From NCBI GenBank assembly GCA_028534125.1, contig CM052816.1, forward strand, positions 16,184,001 through 16,248,000: DNA of 64,000 nt, given 5' to 3'. Source of the stretch: Lama glama. Taxonomy: Eukaryota. Within the stretch, counting starts at the first letter, position 1; each line of letters starts with the position of its first letter. Below the pieces are notes generated by a model that saw only the letters and a list, made by a program, of their open reading frames with translations, was not told where the DNA came from and did not search any database. A program made the position numbers and the translations under genes. Shown here in pieces: positions 34,188 to 56,602 of this stretch.

Positions 34188-36479
34188 AAAGCCATTCCAT
34201 CGCTATCATTTAAAATTCTTAGCTATTTCCTGGATGGTGTTAACCTTGGAATAACATACATAAAACACTGAAATTACACTGTCTACATATCCCTGCCACC
34301 CCACCCCCAATAAACTTAGTACTGTCCCATCCCAAATCTCCAGTCAGTCAAGTATACCTAGAACCTGTTGCCACAGGAATGGACAGTTTTAATGTAATTC
34401 TAACTAAAAGAGACATACAAAAACAAAACACAGCCTTTTACCTAAAAGATGTACTAAGAGCCATTATCTAACAAGGCATTAAACAATTCTTTGGTCTTGA
34501 TCATTTAAAAATCGCTAGTTCATACCATAATCTAATTAGCATTACTCCTAATAATTGGCCGTAATAATTACGTAATTCCTTTACATAAGAATGTCTTCAC
34601 ATTCCTTTCTTTAAACATAATAACCAGAGTATCTTACACAAGTACTTCTTTTTGTCACTTCTGAACAGTCTGCACTTCAGATTTCAGGAAGCTGGCTCAT
34701 TTCTATCTCAATTTCCCTCAAAAATATGTGAGATCCTAAAAAACAAAACATGATTCTGATCTTTCAAGCAGTTCTAGTATTTAGGGAAAAGTTTCACTTT
34801 TCCTCATTACAAAAGTAAATGTAACTTCTTGTAGAAATTTCAGAAAAAGAGGAAGAGAATACAAATGACCCATAATGCCAACATCCAGAGCTAAAACTTT
34901 TTGGTGTATCTCAATTTTATGCTTATTTACATGTGCTTTCAAAGAACAAAAAATCAAATTTTGTATCAAATTTAGTTCATTACATTTTCTTCTCAATACT
35001 ATATTCCACTATAATTTTCCCATCGTTACTCTCCTTAAAGCATTGTTTTAAATAGCTGTATAGATTTCCACTCGATGGCTACACTATAATTAGCAGATCT
35101 CCAAATGCTGAAATTTTTTCGATTTTCAATATGCTTAAAAACCAACATTAACATTTAGGTACACAAATCTTTGACACACTAGTCCCCGAGAATAAATTCC
35201 TGTAAGCGCATTTCTCCCATTTTTAAACCTATTTATTATAACATACAGAACCTGAATCAAGTATCCAATCAAAATTCAAGCGTTCCAAGAACACACCGCT
35301 TCCTTGGGCTTTAATTCTCTCCTCTATAAAATGAGGGATTTGAAGTACTTGTTATTTCTATTATTACATAAGACATTTTCCTTGCATTCTTCGGTTGTTA
35401 AAATTTGTTTAGATAAGTTGACTTTAATTTGATTTAGTGTTTACACTTCCCTAAAAGCATTGGTAAAATCATTATGTTTAAAGACTCTCCACATACACAA
35501 TGTTCAAATTAAGGGTGGTTCAATCCTCCCAAATTTAGTTCAAAATGCTATGTAAAAGCAACTTCACATAGCTGAGAAGGGAGATATGTAAAAACGTCCC
35601 CTCTGGGTAAAGTATACATTAATGTTACCAGCATATAAAACGCAAGGTAAGATTTGTAAATTTAAAGCACATTGAACACAAACGCTTCTGGCCAACGATC
35701 TCTTTTCCAAATCTTACATAACCATCCAGAAGAATCTTCACATGGTACTTCAATTGTGTTTAATTTCAAGTGGAAAAGTCACACGCAGAGTTTTTGCAAC
35801 AAAAACCTGTCTCCCCCGGCTTCTTGATTTCCAAAACAATACTAACATTAAACAATTATATCGATAAGACTCGGTAGATGACTGAGCAATTTAGTTTCTA
35901 AAAGAAATTTTACTTCGAAAATGTGTGAAAACAGCCTAAAATATAATTTCTGCCCGAATACAACTGTTTAACTTTACCTGGGAGAAAACTGTTTTCTCAT
36001 CTATTTAAAAATCTTTTATCAAGCTCCGCTCAACACGCAGCATCAACGCAAAATCTCATGACTACAGCTTGGGAAATACTCGCACTCTATTCCAGAGCGC
36101 TTCAGAGACTAGAATTTCGGAGTCGCCATAACCGTTCTAGAAATATCTGGCTGGAAAACTGTAATTGGTCCAATATGACCATTCCACAATATAGGGTCGC
36201 AGAACAGGATAAACATCTTCGAGATATTCCTTCACAGTAAACGGAAAAAGTCCCTGTTGAACATATTACACGGCACAGCGCCGGCAGTGAAAAGAACAAC
36301 GATGCGGCGACTACACCGCCGTACTCTAAACCCTTTGTCTGGAAACCGGAAGGTCCCACACGACATCATCCTCTCTAGAGGAACAGAGATTGATAGTATT
36401 TTAATAAAGAGGAAAAGGAATGTGAAGGGACTCTCTAAACAAGAACAAATCTGCCTCGCAGCATACTGCAGAAGGATTT

Positions 36480-37900
36480 ATATACGACGCAATACGAAAA
36501 ACAAGCGTTAACGTTTCATTTTTCGGCCATTTTTACGCGATGGCGGGTGGAGAGGGATTGTTTCTGAGGTCCGACTAAAACGCGCGCGCATGTATGGGTG
36601 GGCGGAGGACAGACGATTCTTAGGGGGCGCTATAAAGCGATGGGTGAGGAGAGGAGCGAAGGCCGCGACACCAAGAAAGAAACGTTGCTCGAACGGCTAA
36701 GCTTCTCAGTCCGTGAAATCCTCCATTTTAGGGCACATTTTCATCCACAAAGAGGGGGGGAGGCAAGCATACGTGGGGCTAGCGCTATCCATGGTCTTCG
36801 CTATCTTAACTAGCCTCCCCAAACGGCAGGCCCCCTATAGACAGTCGGTCCCTCAGGCCTCGAGCGCTTGCTCCTCCCTCCCCCTCGGCGCTGCAAGCCC
36901 GCGTGTAACGGGCTCGTCGTCCCGCCCCCGCCCACAGCAAGCCCAGGACGCAGGAAGCCCGGACGATCGGCTGCCACCGGCGCCCCCCGACTCTCCCGTC
37001 GCACCCTGGCCCCTTGGCTGAACGCGTGTCTCCCTCCGGGACCGCTCACCTCCGCCGCGCGAGGAGGCTGGTTGCGCCGCCACTGAGCTCCTAACATGGC
37101 GGCCGCCGATCAGGCGGCTCACATACGCAGCGCGGAGGGAGGCAGAGCGGGGGAGCGGGAGCGAGCAAGAAAGGCGCGCCGCCGGCTCCCCGCGGCCCCT
37201 GTCGCCGTCGCTGCCTCCTCCCGGCAGATGCGGAGAGCCCCCGGCCACCCCACCCCGATTCTTACCCGCTTCACGCCTACCTTAAGGAAAGGGAGAGGGA
37301 AAAGGAGAGGTACCTCTCTCCTAGCAAGCGGGACGCGGAGGCTCCCACAATCCTCCGCAGCAACGGCGCTGGTAAGAGGTGGCAGCAGCGGCGGCAGCCC
37401 AAGAACAAACCCAGTCTCGCGAGAGAGCTCGCCCCCACCCACCTCGGGTCCCGTTTCTGCGCGCGCCAGGCCCCTCCCCCTACTCAGCGCGCGCACGTCG
37501 CTCGCTCACTTAGCAGCGGTCGTTGTTCTCTAATTCTGAAGTCCGCCTGTGGCGGGAAACGGAGATTTAGAGTTACAGTCGAGTCCCATTACCCACAAAG
37601 GATTTTTCCCACCTCCCCCCTCAATTGCGTACTGCAAAATTTAAGTAAGTGTATGCATTAGAAGCGAGTCGCGGGGGTCCCTGGCTTAGACCCGATTTCT
37701 ATCCTCTCCGGTGTTCTTCGATTATTTGCCAACGAGTGTTGGGGGCAGGAAGTGGGGACCGATAACATTTTGACTGACTTTTAATCTTAGAATTCTGTGG
37801 AGGGTCATTGAGGCGGAAGATGGCGAAAACCCATCCCGTCGAAAAGGCCGCCGCCGCCATTTGGAGAATTTAAATGTAAAATATTGAGACAAGTCCCTTG
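36480..37900 (-). promoter_or_regulatory. MATR3: MATR3 proximal CpG-island promoter with alternative first exons
   Basis: CpG-dense. Minus-strand donors GAG|GTGAGC (37050), CGG|GTAAGA (~37266), TAA|GTGAGC (~37510). Several YY1-like (A/G)ATGGCG / GCCATTT motifs. Confidence 0.88.
37050..37097 (-). CDS. MATR3: Exon-1 coding segment MLGAQWRRNQPPRAAE (alternative N-terminus or uORF start)
   Basis: GCCGCCATG context, 16 codons, phase-0 donor GAG|GTGAGC. Resembles, from memory, the N-terminus of the short human Matrin-3 isoform that skips the 912-nt coding exon. Confidence 0.75.
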
Positions 37901-40409
37901 TGAGCAAAGGAATAGCACGTGTGAAAACCCTGAGGCTGACTTTGAAAAATTGTATAGATAAGGCTGGAGGAAAGGCCATTTCCCTGGGGTTTCAAATTTA
38001 AATGCAGAGCGGCAGGCAGTCATCTGACACCTGGGGTAAATTAGTGAATACAAGTCAGACTAATAGCCCTCAAATTTTAAAAATCTTGAGTGTGCTGAAT
38101 CAGATTCGCGTCTTTGAAAAATAATTCTGGGTCCACTGTGAGGATAGTGGAGGGGAGAAAGATGGAGAAGAGACCGTTAGAAAACTAAACAGATCATTTA
38201 GGACAAAAGGCAGGTCATTAACTTGATTGGATATGGAAGTATGGATGAATGACATCTCATTGGTTAGCAGAGCTATTGAAGAGCACTAGAAAAGGATCAG
38301 TTGGGGAGATAAGGCTAGTTGAGTTTGGCATCGATTTTAAAGGAGCTGCATTTATGGGTCTTGAGCTCAGGGGAAAAGGGTGTGGGTTAGTGGCAAATTT
38401 TGAGTTAATAACATAAATGAATGGGAGTTCAAAAAATGGGGGATAGGGAGGTAAAGAGGCCTTAGGACCAAGCCTTGAGAAACTGAGAAGGTAGAGCTGA
38501 GTGGCAAAAGAGACAAAGTGAGTAGAAATGCGGGGACGGAGGAGAAAAAAAAATGTGAGAAGAGGGGAGAGGCACAGAAATTGTACTCCCTAGACAGCCA
38601 AAGTACTTAAAGGACGAAATGATCAACAGGGCCAAATACTACCAAGGGGTCAAAAGTAAGACTGAAAACATGTATAAAAGATTTAGCAATGTGGACACTT
38701 AATTCTAGTTAAGTGGGAGAGGAAGTCAGACTGGAGGTACTTAAGTGTATGGAAAGTGGTGAGATGGAAACTACTCAATGCAGAGAAGTGTTGGCTATGA
38801 AGAGATGAGAAAGCAGGGCTGGGGAAGGTTTTTGCTTTACTATGGGAAAACTTTCAGCACAACTAAAATCAGGAAAGAATTAGGTGAAAAAACAGGGAGA
38901 GAAAGGTTAATTCATAATGGACATTAGTGGGATCTGAAGGAGACATGCCTTTACTGTAACAGGACAATTTGAGAGGATGGTGCTGAGTTTTCATTAGGAA
39001 TTACAATTAGGTGACTTCAGTTTCATGACTAAGCCATCTGTTGGTAGGACTAGAGTTGCAGGAGGGAAAATTTAAAAATAGCCATTGTTTAGAGTGAAAC
39101 TGTAATCTCACATCTCCATGTATATTATCATCTACAGGCTTTGTTTGAGAAGCATCCAGAACTGGGGCTCCCCTGAATGAGAGGGTTAAACCCACTAAAT
39201 AGTTAGCTTCAGAATGAAATTTGGGGAATCCTAAATGTTCAGTGAAACTTGGGTCCTCCTTCACTTGAAACCAGATCTGCTTTCTACTCTAAATCTTCTA
39301 TTTCAATTGATTTTGGTCAAGACTTCTGTTTATGTTGCCCCCAGCTCTTAGACTGAAGTCTGCTCTTCTGGAGACAGAAACATGAGTATGTCTTAGTTCA
39401 GATATGCACTTACCATGCTTTTGTATAAGGCTGTAATGCCATCTGGTGATGGTATGAAGAAGAAAAGGCAAACTTTTTCAATTAAGTAATTATTTATTAA
39501 GGATCTGCTTAGTGGCTCAACAGCAAAAAGACACACTGGAAACAAGTTTTTATGCAAGATTTCAGTCATCAAATGCCTATTTCACGAAGGACACAATACA
39601 AGGGAGGGCATACAATAATGGGTAAGACAAATTGCCAGTTCTTGAGGATCCCGGTCTGATAAACAGACAAGGAGTTTGCCCTCAAGTTGGACCTGGCTAT
39701 GAGCAGAGATGGATCAATAGCTGTATTCACATTTGGATTTCTTGGGAGTGGTTGTGGTACACCAGGGATGGTAATGAGGCTACAAAGCAATAACTTGTGC
39801 TGAGACTTTGAAAGGTCTAAATGACAAGTTTGATGTAAGACAACAGGATAGAGTCTAGATTTGAGCTGATAATGAATACTTTTTAGAGCAGAGGAGTTAT
39901 ATTGATTGAGGACATATATTTTGATACACCATAATCACCAAGCAGCTTATCAGCTGCATTATAATTGAGAGTAAAGTATTATTATTCTTGTTTTCCATAA
40001 GAGATTAAGCAGCTTGCCTAAGGTCATGTAATTAGTGACAATGGCAGGATTTGAATTCAGTTCTATATAAATCCAAATCCAGAGCTTTTGTGCATTATAT
40101 TGGCCTGCCTTCAGCAAAGCTATGGTCTCAGAATCTCCTGGCAGTCCCCCATCTACTATTTTAATAGATTTAAGTCCCAGAACCAGGTCATTTCAATACT
40201 TCACAGTACTAAAATACAGAAAACTATCAACCAGTGGCTCTTCTAACAGTGGCAAGAGAGCAGAAGTGGGCTTAAAAAGGTTTTGAATAGGGAATACATA
40301 TAATCAAATTCAAAGAACAAAAATTACTTCCCCAACCACTATTCCCTTGCATAAAGGCAACCACTATCAACCATTTCTTGTGTACTTTAAGGATTTCCTA
40401 TAAATATAT

Positions 40410-44389: not shown

Positions 44390-44527
44390 GGGGGGAGGGT
44401 ATAGCTCAGTGGTAGAGTGCATGCCTAGCATGCAAGTGGTCCAGGGTTCAATCCTCAGTACTTCCATTAATAAATAAATAAACTGAATTACCTCTCCCCC
44501 TCAAAATAAATAAGTTAAAAACAACCA
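44390..44527 (+). mobile_element. Vic-1-like SINE with 18-bp TSD
   Basis: Full head; TSD cagttaataaa(a/g)gctgta at 44372-44389 and 44528-44545. Confidence 0.92.
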
Positions 44528-49583: not shown

Positions 49584-49785
49584 AACTGTTTGCACCCAGA
49601 CTAGGACCAACTCCATAGAAGGAGTTTCTCCACTCTCAGAGGTGCAAAATACTGCCCAAAGGTACTAAGCCACAACACCAAAACAGAGCCGAAGCCAGAC
49701 CTTAACAAAGGCAGCATTTGCTCTTCCAACAGTGTAACACCATCCAAGGCATCACACTAGCCTGGATAGCTGACAACCGCTGGAT
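49584..49785 (-). ncRNA. SNORA74A: Box H/ACA snoRNA U19 (SNORA74A orthologue)
   Basis: Reverse complement begins ATCCAGCGGTTGTCAGCTATCCAGGC and ends GGGTGCAA-ACA-GTT; H box AGAGCA; 202 nt. Pockets GUCA/GUUAC and GAGAGU/UAGU are complementary to 28S helix 69 (GUAACUAUGACUCUC), each 14 nt from its box. Confidence 0.95.
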
Positions 49786-50546: not shown

Positions 50547-51690
50547 ACAACCTAAATGTCCATCAACAGGTGACTGGATAAAGAAGATGTGGTATATTTA
50601 TACAATGGAATACTACTCAGCCATAAAAACTGACAACATAACACCATTTGCAGCAACATGGATGATCCTAGAGAATGTCATTCTAAGTGAAGTAAGCCAG
50701 AAAGAGAAAGAAAAATACCATATGAGATCGCTCATATGTGGAATCTAAAAAACAAAAACAAAAACAAACAAACAAAAGCAAAGCATAAATACAGGACAGA
50801 AATAGACTCATGGACAGAGAATACAGACTTGTGGTTACCAGGGGGGTAGAGGGTGGGAAGGGATAGACTGGGATTTCAAAATTGTAGAATAGATAAACAA
50901 GATTACACTGTATAGCACAGGGAAATATACACAAAATGTTATGATAAATCACAGAGAAAAAANNNNNNNNNNNNNNNNNNNNNNNNNNNNNNNNNNNNNN
51001 NNNNNNNNNNNNNNNNNNNNNNNNNNNNNNNNNNNNNNNNNNNNNNNNNNNNNNNNNNNNNNNNNNNNNNNNNNNNNNNNNNNNNNNNNNNNNNNNNNNN
51101 NNNNNNNNNNNNNNNNNNNNNNNNNNNNNNNNNNNNNNNNNNNNNNNNNNNNNNNNNNNNNNNNNNNNNNNNNNNNNNNNNNNNNNNNNNNNNNNNNNNN
51201 NNNNNNNNNNNNNNNNNNNNNNNNNNNNNNNNNNNNNNNNNNNNNNNNNNNNNNNNNNNNNNNNNNNNNNNNNNNNNNNNNNNNNNNNNNNNNNNNNNNN
51301 NNNNNNNNNNNNNNNNNNNNNNNNNNNNNNNNNNNNNNNNNNNNNNNNNNNNNNNNNNNNNNNNNNNNNNNNNNNNNNNNNNNNNNNNNNNNNNNNNNNN
51401 NNNNNNNNNNNNNNNNNNNNNNNNNNNNNNNNNNNNNNNNNNNNNNNNNNNNNNNNNNNNNNGACTGGGATTTCAAAATTGTAGAATAGATAAACAAGAT
51501 TACACTGTATAGCACAGGGAAATATACACAAAATGTTATGATAAATCACAGAGAAAAAATGTGACAATGAGTGTGTGTATGTCCATGAATGACTGAAAAA
51601 TTGTGCTGAACACTGGAATTTGACACAACACTGTAAAATGATTATGAATCAATAAAAAATGCAAATAAATAAATAAATAAATAAATAAAT
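50547..51690 (+). mobile_element. 5'-truncated young L1 (ORF2 C-terminus + 3'UTR + (TAAA)n tail), interrupted by the assembly gap
   Basis: QPKCPSTGDWIKKMWYIYTMEYYSAIK...FAATW is the L1 ORF2 C-terminus; AATAAA and A-rich tail at ~51651-51690. Confidence 0.93.
50963..51462. other. Assembly gap (500 N)
   Basis: Run of N. Confidence 1.
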
Positions 51691-52589
51691 ACTTCTAGCT
51701 GAGGTGGAGTAAAATACTTTACCTGGCAGCAAGTAAAAAAAAAAAAAAAAAGCTAAACATCCCCTAAGCCCTCTAGATTATTACTCATATTAAAAACCCA
51801 TATGTAAAAGGCTATTCACAATGAACATCTGAGGGATTCACACAAAGCACTCAACATTTAGCTAAGAGAATCCTTTAAAGGGAAAGTCAATTGATAGAAG
51901 AAAACTAACTTTCATAACTAACTCCTCTGCCTCCCAACATCCTCACCAGTTCCTCCTGTAGAAACTAGGATGTCACATAAGCAGCAATTTAAGTCAACCC
52001 TACTCGACAACCTCCAACATCACCCTGAGTGATAAATATTTGCCTAGAACTGAGAAGCATCTCTTCTCAGAACATTAGCATTCCAAAACAAAGTCACTAC
52101 AAAGGAGACTCAATATTTACTGCTCCAAAAAGTGGCAACAACTCTGTTCACTCCTGAAAATCAGTAAGAAACCAACAAGAATATTCCATCAACCTAAAGC
52201 AGAAATTAGTATTTAGACCTAGTATCTAGAGCCCCTCAATCGATTGCTATTTTTACATTTTATTAATGAGCTAAAGAATGCCTATAATTTTAAAAACAAA
52301 TTTACAGTAACATTTCCTTGTAAGACATGACATTCTGACAGGTAACTATAGCTACGAAGTCCCTCTACAAAGAGATTGTAGCTAGCTTTGTATTGTGGGA
52401 GAGTGGGAGAAATGAACTTTGATTTCAGTGAAATTAGCATAAATTCCATTGACTTCCACCCTATATAAGGCCTTTTGAGCACTTGGTAGGGACTCAAAAA
52501 ATAAAAGCCCAACTTTTCCTCTCTACTTACACATCCCTCCATGGCCTGATTACCTTTGTTCTGTTTCCAAGTTATGATTCAAGGAACTT

Positions 52590-52838
52590 CATACTAGTCA
52601 AACCTGTCAGACCAGAACCATTCAGAAAGGTCTGGATGTTTAGGTTTCTCCCTGTAAAGTCATGCTGTTACAGATTTAACTTAATGAATAAGCAACTATG
52701 CTGGCACTCTGGTATAGTTAACAACAGAGTTGGCATGAACTAGGCCCAGAATGCCAACCAGCTATTGGCTGCTGTTCTCCCAGCAGTGTAACACATGCCT
52801 AGGTACATGGCAACCTAGGCAGCTGCCTACAGCTGGGG
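52590..52838 (-). ncRNA. Divergent SNORA74-family snoRNA-like RNA (SNORA74D-like position); 3' end uncertain
   Basis: The 5' hairpin aligns with the U19 5' hairpin (CCAGC..CAGCT..GTGTTACACTG.TGG); H box AGAACA at the same 14-nt spacing; several further stems downstream. Confidence 0.75.
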
Positions 52839-53749
52839 CCAAATGTAGCTAAAGGAGTCTCCCACTCACCTGGGGCTGCATCTGCCCAAAGTACACAGCT
52901 GGCACCTCTGCAATCAAAATACTCTAGGTTAGAGTCAGCCAACAGTTAGTGAACACCTGTGTGGAATTCAAGACCGCCCCCCCCCCCGCCAAAACAGTGA
53001 GGCCTGAGCCACAAAACCAATAGCAGACAATAAAACAATTAGCTTTACCTTGGTTAGCTTTATTTTCATATGTCATTTTTACCTGCATACAGTTCAATAG
53101 CAGCAAATTAATAACCTTATCAAAAAATATCAGGAAGTTTGGCTCTGTCACCTAACAGCCAAGTGATAGTGGGCAAGAAACTTAACCTCTCTGTAACTTC
53201 AGTCTCTTCATTTATAGAATGAGGGTATTAAAAGTACTTTGTACACAGGGTGGTTGGGAGATTTAAATGGAATATAATTAAGCTCATAGGATAATATCTG
53301 ATACAGACTGTGTACTCTGTAAACTCTTGCTATTATCCGGAGCTGTATTCCAGGTAAGGAGATATGAATATTAGTGAGAAGAGGGGAAGATATCCTGGGA
53401 GAGCAATGGGCAGTAAAAACTAGAAAGGCAGGTTAAAACTAGATCAGGAGGGCCTCAGTTATAGTACCTCTTGAAGAACAATAAAAGCAGCACTTTAGAA
53501 AAATAATTGGACGTAGTAATGGGTGCAAAAGCAACTGGAGGCAGTTAGGTTGCCATTCCTGTTAACGACCTCAACTACTGGTTAAAAGCAATGTTTACAA
53601 AAATGATAATAAACATTCGTACCCAGTCACCCTTATTTATATAAGGTGAGGGTATCTAAAACCATACTTTTTTCCCCAGCCATCCTCTGATTTCACTCCT
53701 AAATGCCTACAAACAATTTAAGAAGAAAAGGAAAATAGACGGGAATCAT

Positions 53750-54720
53750 TACCTAGGCCTAAAAACGAATCTAAAAATGGCCTGTCGCTTTTCGGGGCTG
53801 GGGTTGAAGGGGACTGACAGAACTCCTCTTGAACACGTGTTCCTCGCAAACCTTCCCCAAGTCCCTGGTCCCGGCGCCTGGGAAGCGAGGCTCTCCGAGA
53901 CCGGCTCTAGGTGACTCTTCAGGGACAACAGGGATGGCAGAAAACAGGGGGCGGCTCTAGGGGTATGATCCCCCAGCATCTCTTCAAGATGCCCTGCAAA
54001 ACTGGGGTCACGATGGAACGAACTCCAGTTTCGTCCTGTGCCTCGGAACACGCTTCCTCACAGCTGCTTCTCGCCCCTGGCTCGTAAACCTCCAAGACCT
54101 CTCCCCACTTGGCCCTTACTCACCCACACGTGTCCGGAGCTCGGCGGGGACACTGCAGCTCAGATCGAGGCCGCAGGGGAAAGGGCAGCCGGGAGCCGAG
54201 GGGAGCTCCTCCCCGGGGCGGCTACTGGGCGGGCCGTCAGTGGGCGGGGCTCATAAACCCCGCCCAGGAAAGGCCGGTTTAGAAAAGCGCGAAAGCTGCG
54301 GCTGAGGTGAGCAAACTCTTTGTAGGAGCTAGACCCCGGAAGATAAAGGGTGGGAATTTGAACAAGGTCTACGTTTCTTTGACACCCTTCCTATTTGTTA
54401 CCTACGCCTGGAAAGGGCGCTGGTTTGGAGCTGCTGAAGAGAAAACCTGAGGTGTCCTGGAGGAACGTCACACGGAGCGCTGCTCGTTCCTGTCACACGT
54501 GTGGCGCCTTTCAGTTCCTGTAAGCTCAGCCCACGGTTTTTCCACCTCCCACACAGGTTCTCTTTCTGGCTTTCTTCAGAAGCTCTGTCATCCAGCCAAT
54601 GGATCGCCCACACAGGTCACCTCGGTTTTCAGGATCTCTCCAGGAGGTTTTCGGGTAGATTATGCCTGTCACAGCCTAATCTGCGGGACCACATCCGTGG
54701 GGCCCTGCAGTGGAATCCTT
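53750..54720 (-). promoter_or_regulatory. SNHG4: GC-rich promoter and first exon of the SNHG4-like snoRNA host / distal MATR3 promoter
   Basis: CpG-enriched, GC boxes (GGGCGGGGC ~54242, CCCCGCCC ~54258), ETS CCGGAAG ~54335, minus-strand donor TGG|GTGAGT at 54124/54123. Lies just upstream of two SNORA74-type RNAs; symbol by synteny. Confidence 0.72.
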
Positions 54721-56602
54721 AGCTGAACTGCAGGAGCTAAAGAATACTGGCTTTCTCTGCCAGACTTGCCTTTCACTGTGGCACAGCCAAATAAGCCACA
54801 TCCTTGGTCTGCACAGATTGCCTGCCCTTCAGGTTATCAGCATTTCTTTTGAACACTAAACCTTCCCACACTAATTGGAGTCAATACGATTCTGTCCTGC
54901 TGAACAGTTGATGAAGCTGAGGCCCAGAGGGGCAAGGCCCAGCAGCACTAATTCCTAAATCCATTCTGTAATTCTCCAAAGTCTGTACCCACTTCGTTCC
55001 TCCTCCCCTCCCTCCAGCCTACCGGCTCTGCTGATCTTTTGCTCCTGGCATCTTTGTCTGGGGAGCCCCTGGGAATCAGCCAATGCCCTTGTCATCATGC
55101 TATTTCCTCAGCTATTTTGTAATGGAAAATACGTGCTTCCTGTGCACCCCAACACTCGCAGACCTCCACTGAGAAAGCCCAAAGTCCTACATTGATTCCA
55201 GCAAGAGACCCTAGGCTTTAAGGCCAGAGAGCCTCAAAAGTGGCAAGCACAAATCCTTCCCAGTCTTCATGAAGTTGGACATGGGCTCTGGTAGGAAAAA
55301 GGCTTACATAAATACAGTAATTAAAAATGTCACATGATCAATGCTGGGCTGGTAGGCAGGAGCTCTGCTTTGCAGTTAAATAGGAATGTGGCTGAAGACT
55401 GCTGCCATCATCAATGCCCACATCCAGCTGTCACTGTGTGTTCATAAAGGAGGGTTATGAGAGCTATAAAACTGGGCAGATTAGGTGGGTAATTGTCCTG
55501 CAGAGCTCTGCTAAAGGAGAAATTGCATTGGCATCTCATATATTTTGCTTTCTTTCCTTCCAAACACACAAAATGGAGAAGGCAGTGCTACTCTGAGGAT
55601 TCATGAAAAGGAAGGATGAAGTTTGAATGTGTGCTTTCAGAGAAGAGATAGGAAGTAATTGAGAGATACTAGGGCCTTTGGTGAGAGAGGGGCCAAATGA
55701 CCTGGAGAGAACTGGATTCACAGATCCTTCCAGGGAGAAGGCAGGATTTGTGTGGAGGGAAGGCCAGCCATTATAAATAAAGCTGAGAGGTGGGCCATGT
55801 TCTCATGTCATATTGGAAGTGTGGTCAACTTTTATAGGTATAGGCCATTCAGTGTCCTTTGGAGGAAAACCAATATTATGATTTCTTCATTTCCTTGTTA
55901 AAAAATCCTTTAGAGTCAACTTTCTTAATCTCCATCTTTTAAATTCTGAATTATTTTGGTGATTTGACTTATGTGGTCTTTTACTTACAACATCAACCAC
56001 TTTTCTACCTTTTTGTTTCTTAATACTTGCAAAGACAAAATTATCAGGAATAATAACAAAAAAGAAAAGGGAAAATTTCTAGGAAATAAATGCAGCCAGA
56101 TGAAAGGTCCCTAAGCTTCTTGCCTGCCTTTCCCTTTCTCCTTCATCTGTCCTCTCCTTTTTGCTTCCTTACTTGAAGACTTTTGCACCTGAGACTGCTC
56201 TTTTCCTCTCCTCCCTGGACAGGAATTATCAATAGAGATATATTTAATCATTTGTTCAATTAGTCAATCAGTCAACCAACATTTACTGAACATCTACCAT
56301 TTACTAGAACCTGTTCAGGTGCTGCAGATAAACTCAGAGCAATAGAGATTCCTGCCTACCTAAAGCTTGTAGTCTAGGTGAGGAGAAAGATAAGCACTGT
56401 AGGTATTCTTGGGCATATATCAGGGGCAGCTAACTTAGCCTGGGGAGTCCTAGAGATGGCAGTATACCCTCTAGCTGATCCCAAAGGCTTACAGTAGAAG
56501 AAGGAGTTCTCTTGCATCCCTGTAATATTCTTGCTGCTGCTCTGTAATACCAAAGTTCGACTAGGGCCCTGCAGTGGTCCTTATTCCTCAAAAGCATAGT
56601 TG

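Follow-up and report, generated by a model that had tools for sequence, protein, structure and literature searches.

The minus strand of the 64,000-nucleotide stretch of Lama glama DNA analysed here (assembly GCA_028534125.1, contig CM052816.1, positions 16,184,001 to 16,248,000; below, the window) carries a gene for the snoRNA U19 and, further upstream, a second element that resembles it, and the question raised by this locus is what the second copy has become. A preliminary description of positions 52590 to 52838 had proposed an orphan or re-targeted H/ACA RNA of ~250 nt, with the U19 fold kept by compensatory changes, an altered guide and a remodelled 3' half. Read on the minus strand, the window contains the 5' part of the mammalian MATR3 gene. 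The large coding exon that holds the start of matrin-3 (25242-26159, minus strand) served to fix which locus this is and on which strand the host gene runs: in a homology search, its frame of 306 aa matched matrin-3 of many placental mammals with 100% identity over 99% of the length (E ~1e-199); a protein-atlas look-up with this exon gave only scores below 0.9. The true SNORA74 (U19) gene, which is the parent or sister copy of the element, was found at 49585-49784 (minus strand) by an Rfam scan at gathering thresholds (RF00090, 201.9 bits, E 8.4e-54, model positions 1-201). SNORA74A is described as MATR3-intronic in human and mouse in PMC12245033. The U19-like element lies approximately 3 kb upstream of U19, on the strand shared by SNORA74 and the MATR3 coding exon.

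The position of the element within the host transcript was read from splice-site and promoter motifs. The host transcript may have a non-coding exon of 38 bases at 52870-52907 (minus strand), with a pyrimidine tract and CAG before it and GTGAGT (52869-52864) after it; in that case the element, which has the same orientation as the transcript, would start in the following intron, approximately 32 bases from its 5' end. Intronic snoRNAs usually occur one per intron, a layout that would be respected here with U19 in a further-downstream intron of the same transcript. A putative host promoter and first exon can be placed at 54118-54300 (minus strand), where GC boxes and CpG-rich sequence were present and the candidate first exon would end at GTGAGT 54123-54118. 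The GC content was 0.55 at 54001-55000, and CpG-rich promoter-like stretches were observed at 54-55 kb and at 36-38 kb. This latter block (36000-38000, GC 0.52-0.59) precedes the MATR3 coding exon by approximately 11 kb and presumably acts as the main promoter of MATR3, distinct from the one at 54.1-54.3 kb that would serve the snoRNA-hosting exons. An assembly gap (a run of N at ~50680-51650) sits between the element and U19, so that any exon located there is unreadable; the same sequence is present on both sides of it, with one 32-residue translation occurring before and after the run of X, probably as an artefact of gap closing or of duplication. At ~52975-52990 on the minus strand, immediately before the putative 38-base exon, a run of ~14 G broken by one C may represent a G-rich element of the intron or a difficulty in sequencing a homopolymer. 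Elsewhere in the window, tRNA-model matches at 29035-29106 (plus strand), 7985-8059 (minus strand) and 44395-44466 (plus strand), with 55, 41 and 38 bits, look like copies of a tRNA-derived SINE and not tRNA genes, since their sequences are very similar and their acceptor stems mismatched.

To assign the element to known families, we scanned 52300-53100 with Rfam at a permissive threshold, which returned two strong and overlapping matches on the minus strand. The first was SNORA74 at 52697-52837, with 40.5 bits (E 9.4e-9) and a gathering score of 71 left unreached; this bore out that a second, diverged U19-like element is present on the host strand, as had been proposed. Searching the llama's own 2.35-Gb assembly with the SNORA74 model led to three places, namely U19, a second full copy on another contig (U19B, L002:1501-1703, minus strand, GTCA guide intact) and the element, which scored 40.5 bits as in the window scan, against 201.9 and 132.5 bits for U19 and U19B, the true copies. 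The similarity is concentrated at the 5' side. Indeed, the 5' hairpin and H box alone (52771-52837) reached 35.5 bits (E 2.5e-8), so that the model gained just ~5 bits beyond them, and neither the following piece (52685-52772) nor the tail piece (52570-52696) had a SNORA74 match at E values up to 10. The local alignment of the element to U19, over this 5' hairpin and H box, had a z-score of 10 to 15, with none of 1,000 shuffles as good. A weak match to the plant H/ACA family snoR77 was also seen at 52771-52828 on the minus strand (23.7-26 bits, E 0.02-0.07), over the GUGUUA-type guide strand, and may reflect a common helix-69 guide, or chance. The matches to snoR77, PsiU2-38.40.42, ceN81 and other Rfam families were all below the cut-offs, and we treated them as common H/ACA shape or guide, or as chance.

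The U19-type 5' hairpin, delimited by SNORA74 model positions 1-60, the fold and the comparison of pairs, spans 52779-52837 (minus strand) and is made of a 6-bp lower stem, a guide pocket, an upper stem of 9-11 bp and an 8-base loop. It folded at -32.3 kcal/mol (z -3.19), a value equalled by only one of 200 shuffles. Next to it stands the H box AGAACA, of ANANNA form (52773-52778, minus strand), which aligned to AGAGCA of the U19 gene in the window (U19A in comparisons between copies) and AGATAA of U19B. The distance from the top of the 3' strand of the pocket to the box is 14 bases (alignment columns 47-60), and that strand, the 8-base GTTACACT, was identical in all three U19-type copies. The stems and motifs listed in the preliminary description were all located where it had put them on the minus strand, including CCCAGC/GCTGGG, the perfect upper stem around CCTAGG, GTTAC and the H box (52778-52773), and the 14-nt spacing, counted from the G of GTTAC, was confirmed. 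Two states common to U19B and the element are absent from U19A: GTAG in the 5' strand of the pocket and CTGCTGGGAGA before the H box.

The claim of a fold kept by compensatory changes also stood. Many positions of the upper stem differ from U19, yet the helix is perfect. Compared with U19A, 10 of the 17 stem pairs were the same, two were changed on one side, five on both sides and none was broken; these pairs were taken from the individual folds, except that two of the 10 unchanged ones, at the base of the upper stem, were assumed by homology and are absent from the element's own minimum free energy (MFE) fold. All 12 changed stem bases are transitions. The chance of keeping all 17 pairs was 0.0019 when the same positions received random bases and 0.013 when 12 transitions were randomly placed on the stems, and since the changes are counted between paralogues, part of them may belong to the U19 lineage or to the time soon after duplication, which leaves present-day constraint unproven. 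Compensatory change between the paralogues is real, on evidence that is moderate and not overwhelming. As shown by sequence and predicted fold together, the 5' hairpin and the H box derive from U19 and have kept its structure.

The guide, however, is altered, as the preliminary description had noticed. In 28S helix 69, the target U is flanked by GUAAC and UGAC, both of which pair with U19. The 3' guide arm GUUAC is kept in the element, but its 5' arm is GGCA where both U19 copies have GTCA. We read the helix-69 target, GAGTAACTATGAC, from a 28S-like fragment of the llama's own genome (L010, not a complete rRNA gene). With GGCA in place of GUCA, the short second helix, formed with UGAC, has a G.A mismatch at its centre, and the pairing is no longer clean. 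An LSU rRNA model search of the assembly yielded four 28S fragments and no intact rDNA unit; partly decayed 28S fragments (L005-L008) were scattered on chromosomal contigs, and a DNA search added diverged pieces as well as L010, a near-canonical piece on a small contig. With its score below the Rfam cut-off and its guide complementarity broken, the element is not a member of SNORA74 by either measure. It shares with SNORA74A/U19 the host gene and strand, and its 5' hairpin, 3' guide strand, H box and 14-base spacing are homologous, but it has no recognisable middle and 3' hairpins and no canonical terminal ACA.

The second strong match accounts for what follows the H box. The model of mir-1949 (RF03854) matched 52693-52762 on the minus strand at 95.6 bits (E 2.2e-23), over model positions 1-70 of 70 and with all pairs standard, which is 4.4 bits short of the gathering score of 100. 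By a count made by eye, 66 of the 70 bases were identical to the consensus, and the four differences keep or improve pairing. This hairpin folded at -30.5 kcal/mol (z -4.13), better than all of 200 shuffles, with a lower duplex of 13-19 bp that is continuous save for a 3-by-2 internal loop, and without a pseudouridylation pocket. In the llama's own genome, the element was the only match to the mir-1949 model among the candidates scored. The 3' half that had been regarded as remodelled is hence a catalogued mir-1949 precursor, and the element is in substance the mir-1949 locus. The pairings TGGCAT/ATGCCA and ACTCTG/CAGAGT proposed for this part are present in the sequence, but as alternatives to the single hairpin given by both the MFE fold and the mir-1949 model. 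The SNORA74 and mir-1949 gathering scores were both missed at this locus, which indicates that family-model cut-offs hide such hybrids. The mir-1949 family itself is catalogued as a plain 70-base miRNA hairpin, and the Rfam model does not include the U19-type hairpin and H box attached here; the full-length match, a small-RNA equivalent with two of 24 bases different from the cattle read and the cattle-type neighbourhood are what the element has in common with the family.

We also asked which U19 hairpin, if any, the mir-1949 hairpin corresponds to. Aligned to the U19 middle hairpin, it gave p values that were not significant against U19A (0.35-0.44) and borderline against U19B (0.035-0.27); in the control comparison, the middle hairpins of U19A and U19B themselves gave just p 0.037. 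As the U19 3' hairpin, in a covariance-model alignment, it added only ~5 bits.

The mir-1949 family is annotated in rodents and cattle, and profiling papers on mouse, rat and cattle report miR-1949 as a miRNA. In cattle, bta-mir-1949, MATR3, SNORA74, PAIP2 and SIL1 are listed in one 1.4-Mb interval in Table 2 of PMC11460123. The neighbourhood in the llama, where the window holds MATR3 and SNORA74, matches that table at its resolution of 1.4 Mb only. A small-RNA study of cattle liver lists, in Table 5 of PMC5003961, a sequence represented by 6 reads that matched mmu-miR-1949 over 24 bases. We located the equivalent of this small RNA by eye in the 3' arm of the hairpin, at 52694-52717 (minus strand), where two of the 24 bases differ from the tabulated cattle read. 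In mouse HL-1 cardiomyocyte cells, miR-1949 was rare (278 of ~40 million tags), and more than 80% of the tags were 5' isomiRs, according to a table in PMC3272019. Patterns drawn from the mir-1949 3' arm found no matching stretch in metagenome contigs.

Taken as one RNA, the 5' hairpin and the mir-1949 hairpin have the layout of a box H/ACA RNA. The MFE fold of 52837-52694 (144 bases) consists of the 5' hairpin, an unpaired hinge containing AGAACA, the second hairpin and an unpaired AUAGUU tail, in other words hairpin, hinge with an ANANNA box, hairpin and tail, with the H box single-stranded. Its energy was -65.5 kcal/mol (z -4.44), and none of 200 shuffles was as good. The mature 3' end of H/ACA RNAs lies 3 bases after the ACA box, and AUA is tolerated in place of ACA in some of them. 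In the element, AUA (52697-52699, minus strand) comes directly after the hairpin and 3 bases before the putative 3' end, and could act as a variant ACA box; the Rfam model puts its ACA on GCA 52701-52699, which overlaps AUA. The cattle read in Table 5 of PMC5003961, known from its 6 reads and from another species, ends in AUAGUU, that is AUA plus 3 bases. Such an end suggests that the small RNA arises by a snoRNA-type route and not by the canonical one.

The same region can be read against the canonical route. Microprocessor substrates have a basal stem of ~11 bp, a basal UG and a downstream CNNC. Below the 3' end of the small RNA, basal pairing is limited to ~6-7 bp, interrupted by a 7-base one-sided loop, and would engage the H box; in the sequence read, no CNNC was found within 27 bases downstream and no UG at ~-14. 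The mir-1949 hairpin thus looks like a poor Drosha substrate. Regarding the alternative, Dicer is known to act on ACA45 (Ender et al. 2008) and on further H/ACA RNAs and to release miRNA-like RNAs from them (as described in PMC3476530), and miRNA precursors with box H/ACA features were reported by Scott et al. 2009 (PMC2730528).

We have little doubt about the identity of the element, a U19 paralogue joined to mir-1949. How it came to be and how it is processed form a larger claim, which we consider about as apt to hold as to fail: that an old tandem SNORA74 duplicate in an upstream SNHG4/MATR3 intron, in sense orientation, has diverged into a snoRNA-microRNA hybrid with snoRNA-type biogenesis, the biogenesis being the uncertain part. 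According to this model, the working product would be an RNA of ~144 bases (52837-52694) made of hairpin, H box, hairpin, AUA and 3 bases. Exonuclease trimming would free it from the spliced intron, as for intronic snoRNAs, H/ACA proteins bound to the 5' hairpin and to the H and AUA boxes would protect it, and its 3' end would be fixed at AUA plus 3. Dicer would then cut the second hairpin ~24 bases from this snoRNA-type 3' end to give miR-1949, bypassing the normal Drosha step; such a cut would be possible since the hairpin has a long duplex and no guide pocket. We preferred snoRNA-type excision and dicing on the grounds of the AUA+3 end, the poor Drosha features, the rare and 5'-heterogeneous tags and the ACA45 precedent; the sequence, the folds, the family matches and the paralogue comparison are the parts of this scheme that were shown, and the RNA ends, the binding of proteins and the dependence on Dicer are inferred. 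Its weak points are a box that is AUA and not ACA and a second hairpin that has no pocket.

With the identification of mir-1949, the most likely function of this locus moves from an orphan guide RNA to a precursor of snoRNA-derived small RNA. The precursors of H/ACA-derived miRNAs are a published class, and the mir-1949 element would work likewise by analogy. In the miRNAs of ACA45 type, as here, the source of the small RNA is the last hairpin, in its 3' arm and beside the box; the Dicer-dependent and Drosha-independent route of these miRNAs is the mechanism proposed for the element. The element differs from them in that its parent snoRNA family can be identified, a functional sister copy is present in the same host gene and the guide pocket has been lost. 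A stronger version, in which mir-1949 is no stand-alone miRNA gene but the second hairpin of a conserved and still-selected U19 paralogue with two functions, diced independently of Drosha, seems to us less likely than not. In that case, the 5' hairpin would recruit H/ACA proteins, and it might guide modification of a new target or act on the mismatched helix 69.

The hybrid with snoRNA-type biogenesis has to be weighed against an ordinary intronic miRNA gene, whose hairpin is cut by Drosha/DGCR8 and Dicer and in which the U19-like hairpin is an inert leftover of duplication. The long and nearly perfect duplex, its strong fold, the match to a curated miRNA family and the profiling of miR-1949 in mouse, rat and cattle are what such a gene would present. 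A short and interrupted basal stem without basal UG or downstream CNNC is not; nor would one expect an inert leftover to have all 17 pairs intact after 12 changes in the stems, with the 8-base guide strand unchanged and an H box retained. The low expression and heterogeneous 5' ends of miR-1949 in PMC3272019 also speak against it, and we judge this explanation unlikely.

Equally improbable, in our view, is a decaying snoRNA pseudogene that gives no stable product, the miR-1949 reads then being degradation fragments of an abundant host intron. The mutated guide, the absence of a canonical ACA and 3' pocket, the unfolded tail, the two missed gathering scores and the very low read counts in the papers cited above would all be in line with decay. 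Against this, 66 of 70 bases agree with the consensus of a family described from rodents and only two of 24 differ from the tabulated cattle read, which is far more conservation than expected of free intron sequence, provided that the source genome is no close relative of those species. In addition, stems are kept by paired changes, and the cattle read is reported, in that same table, in a defined 24-base form.

There remains the tail (52590-52692, minus strand), claimed in the preliminary description as part of a ~250-nt H/ACA RNA that would end in a pocket-like hairpin followed by ACT; the fold, the SNORA74 search and the alignments gave it no supported structure. It folded at -24.7 kcal/mol, against -20.4 +/- 3.1 kcal/mol for its shuffles (z -1.36), 23 of 200 being as good or better, so that the z-score of -4.12 for the whole 249 bases comes from the first two hairpins. 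Some similarity to U19 was nevertheless seen. The best local alignment of the tail to the U19B 3' hairpin had 28 of 38 columns identical by our own count, with p 0.001-0.005, uncorrected for 18 comparisons. Global alignment of the sequence after the H box gave p 0.035-0.06 against U19B and p 0.15-0.5 against U19A; the score for U19B was above that of all 37 control intron stretches and the score for U19A was within their range. An ACA at 52607-52605, overlooked earlier, as was the identity of 52762-52693 with mir-1949, lines up with the U19 ACA after a gap of ~7 bases in which the lower stem loses its 3' strand, but the U19 upper stem is not kept and the ACA is buried in a helix in the folds. 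At most, the tail may be a dead or decayed remnant of a once complete U19 3' hairpin; its inclusion in any present-day RNA is unsupported. An orphan or re-targeted H/ACA RNA of ~236-250 bases with three hairpins (52838-52590), that is, an entire U19 copy whose 3' hairpin was remodelled, could explain the weak colinear similarity to U19B, the aligned ACA and the global score that tops the controls, but is very improbable given a tail that folds no better than shuffles and lacks a SNORA74 match, the loss of the U19 upper stem and of the 3' strand of the lower stem, the p values of 0.15-0.5 against U19A, an ACA lying inside a helix and an end that its own proponent placed at ACT.

The derivation of mir-1949 from U19 seems not to have been described before: within the open literature searched, we found no statement that mir-1949 is joined to a U19-type hairpin or that it has a U19 or H/ACA origin. 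SNORA74, MATR3, SNHG4 and U19 are absent from the main text of Jorjani et al. 2016 (PMC4914119), and regarding a human counterpart, the literature naming SNORA74C or SNORA74D gives no location for them. If the proposal of a snoRNA-type origin is true, a miRNA whose name occurs in 76 papers and that figures in dozens of rodent and cattle expression studies would be re-labelled as a snoRNA-derived product, which would affect how its abundance, its dependence on the host gene and its dependence on Drosha and Dicer are read. This would also be a case in which a miRNA hairpin has a nameable snoRNA ancestor, open to direct comparison with a sister copy that works within the same transcript. If mir-1949 does belong to a two-function U19 paralogue, the element and its functional parent U19, which share a host gene and lie only 3 kb apart, would offer a natural before-and-after pair for the passage from snoRNA to miRNA. 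The main value of the mir-1949 element would lie in this re-annotation and in a parent and its derivative found within one host gene.
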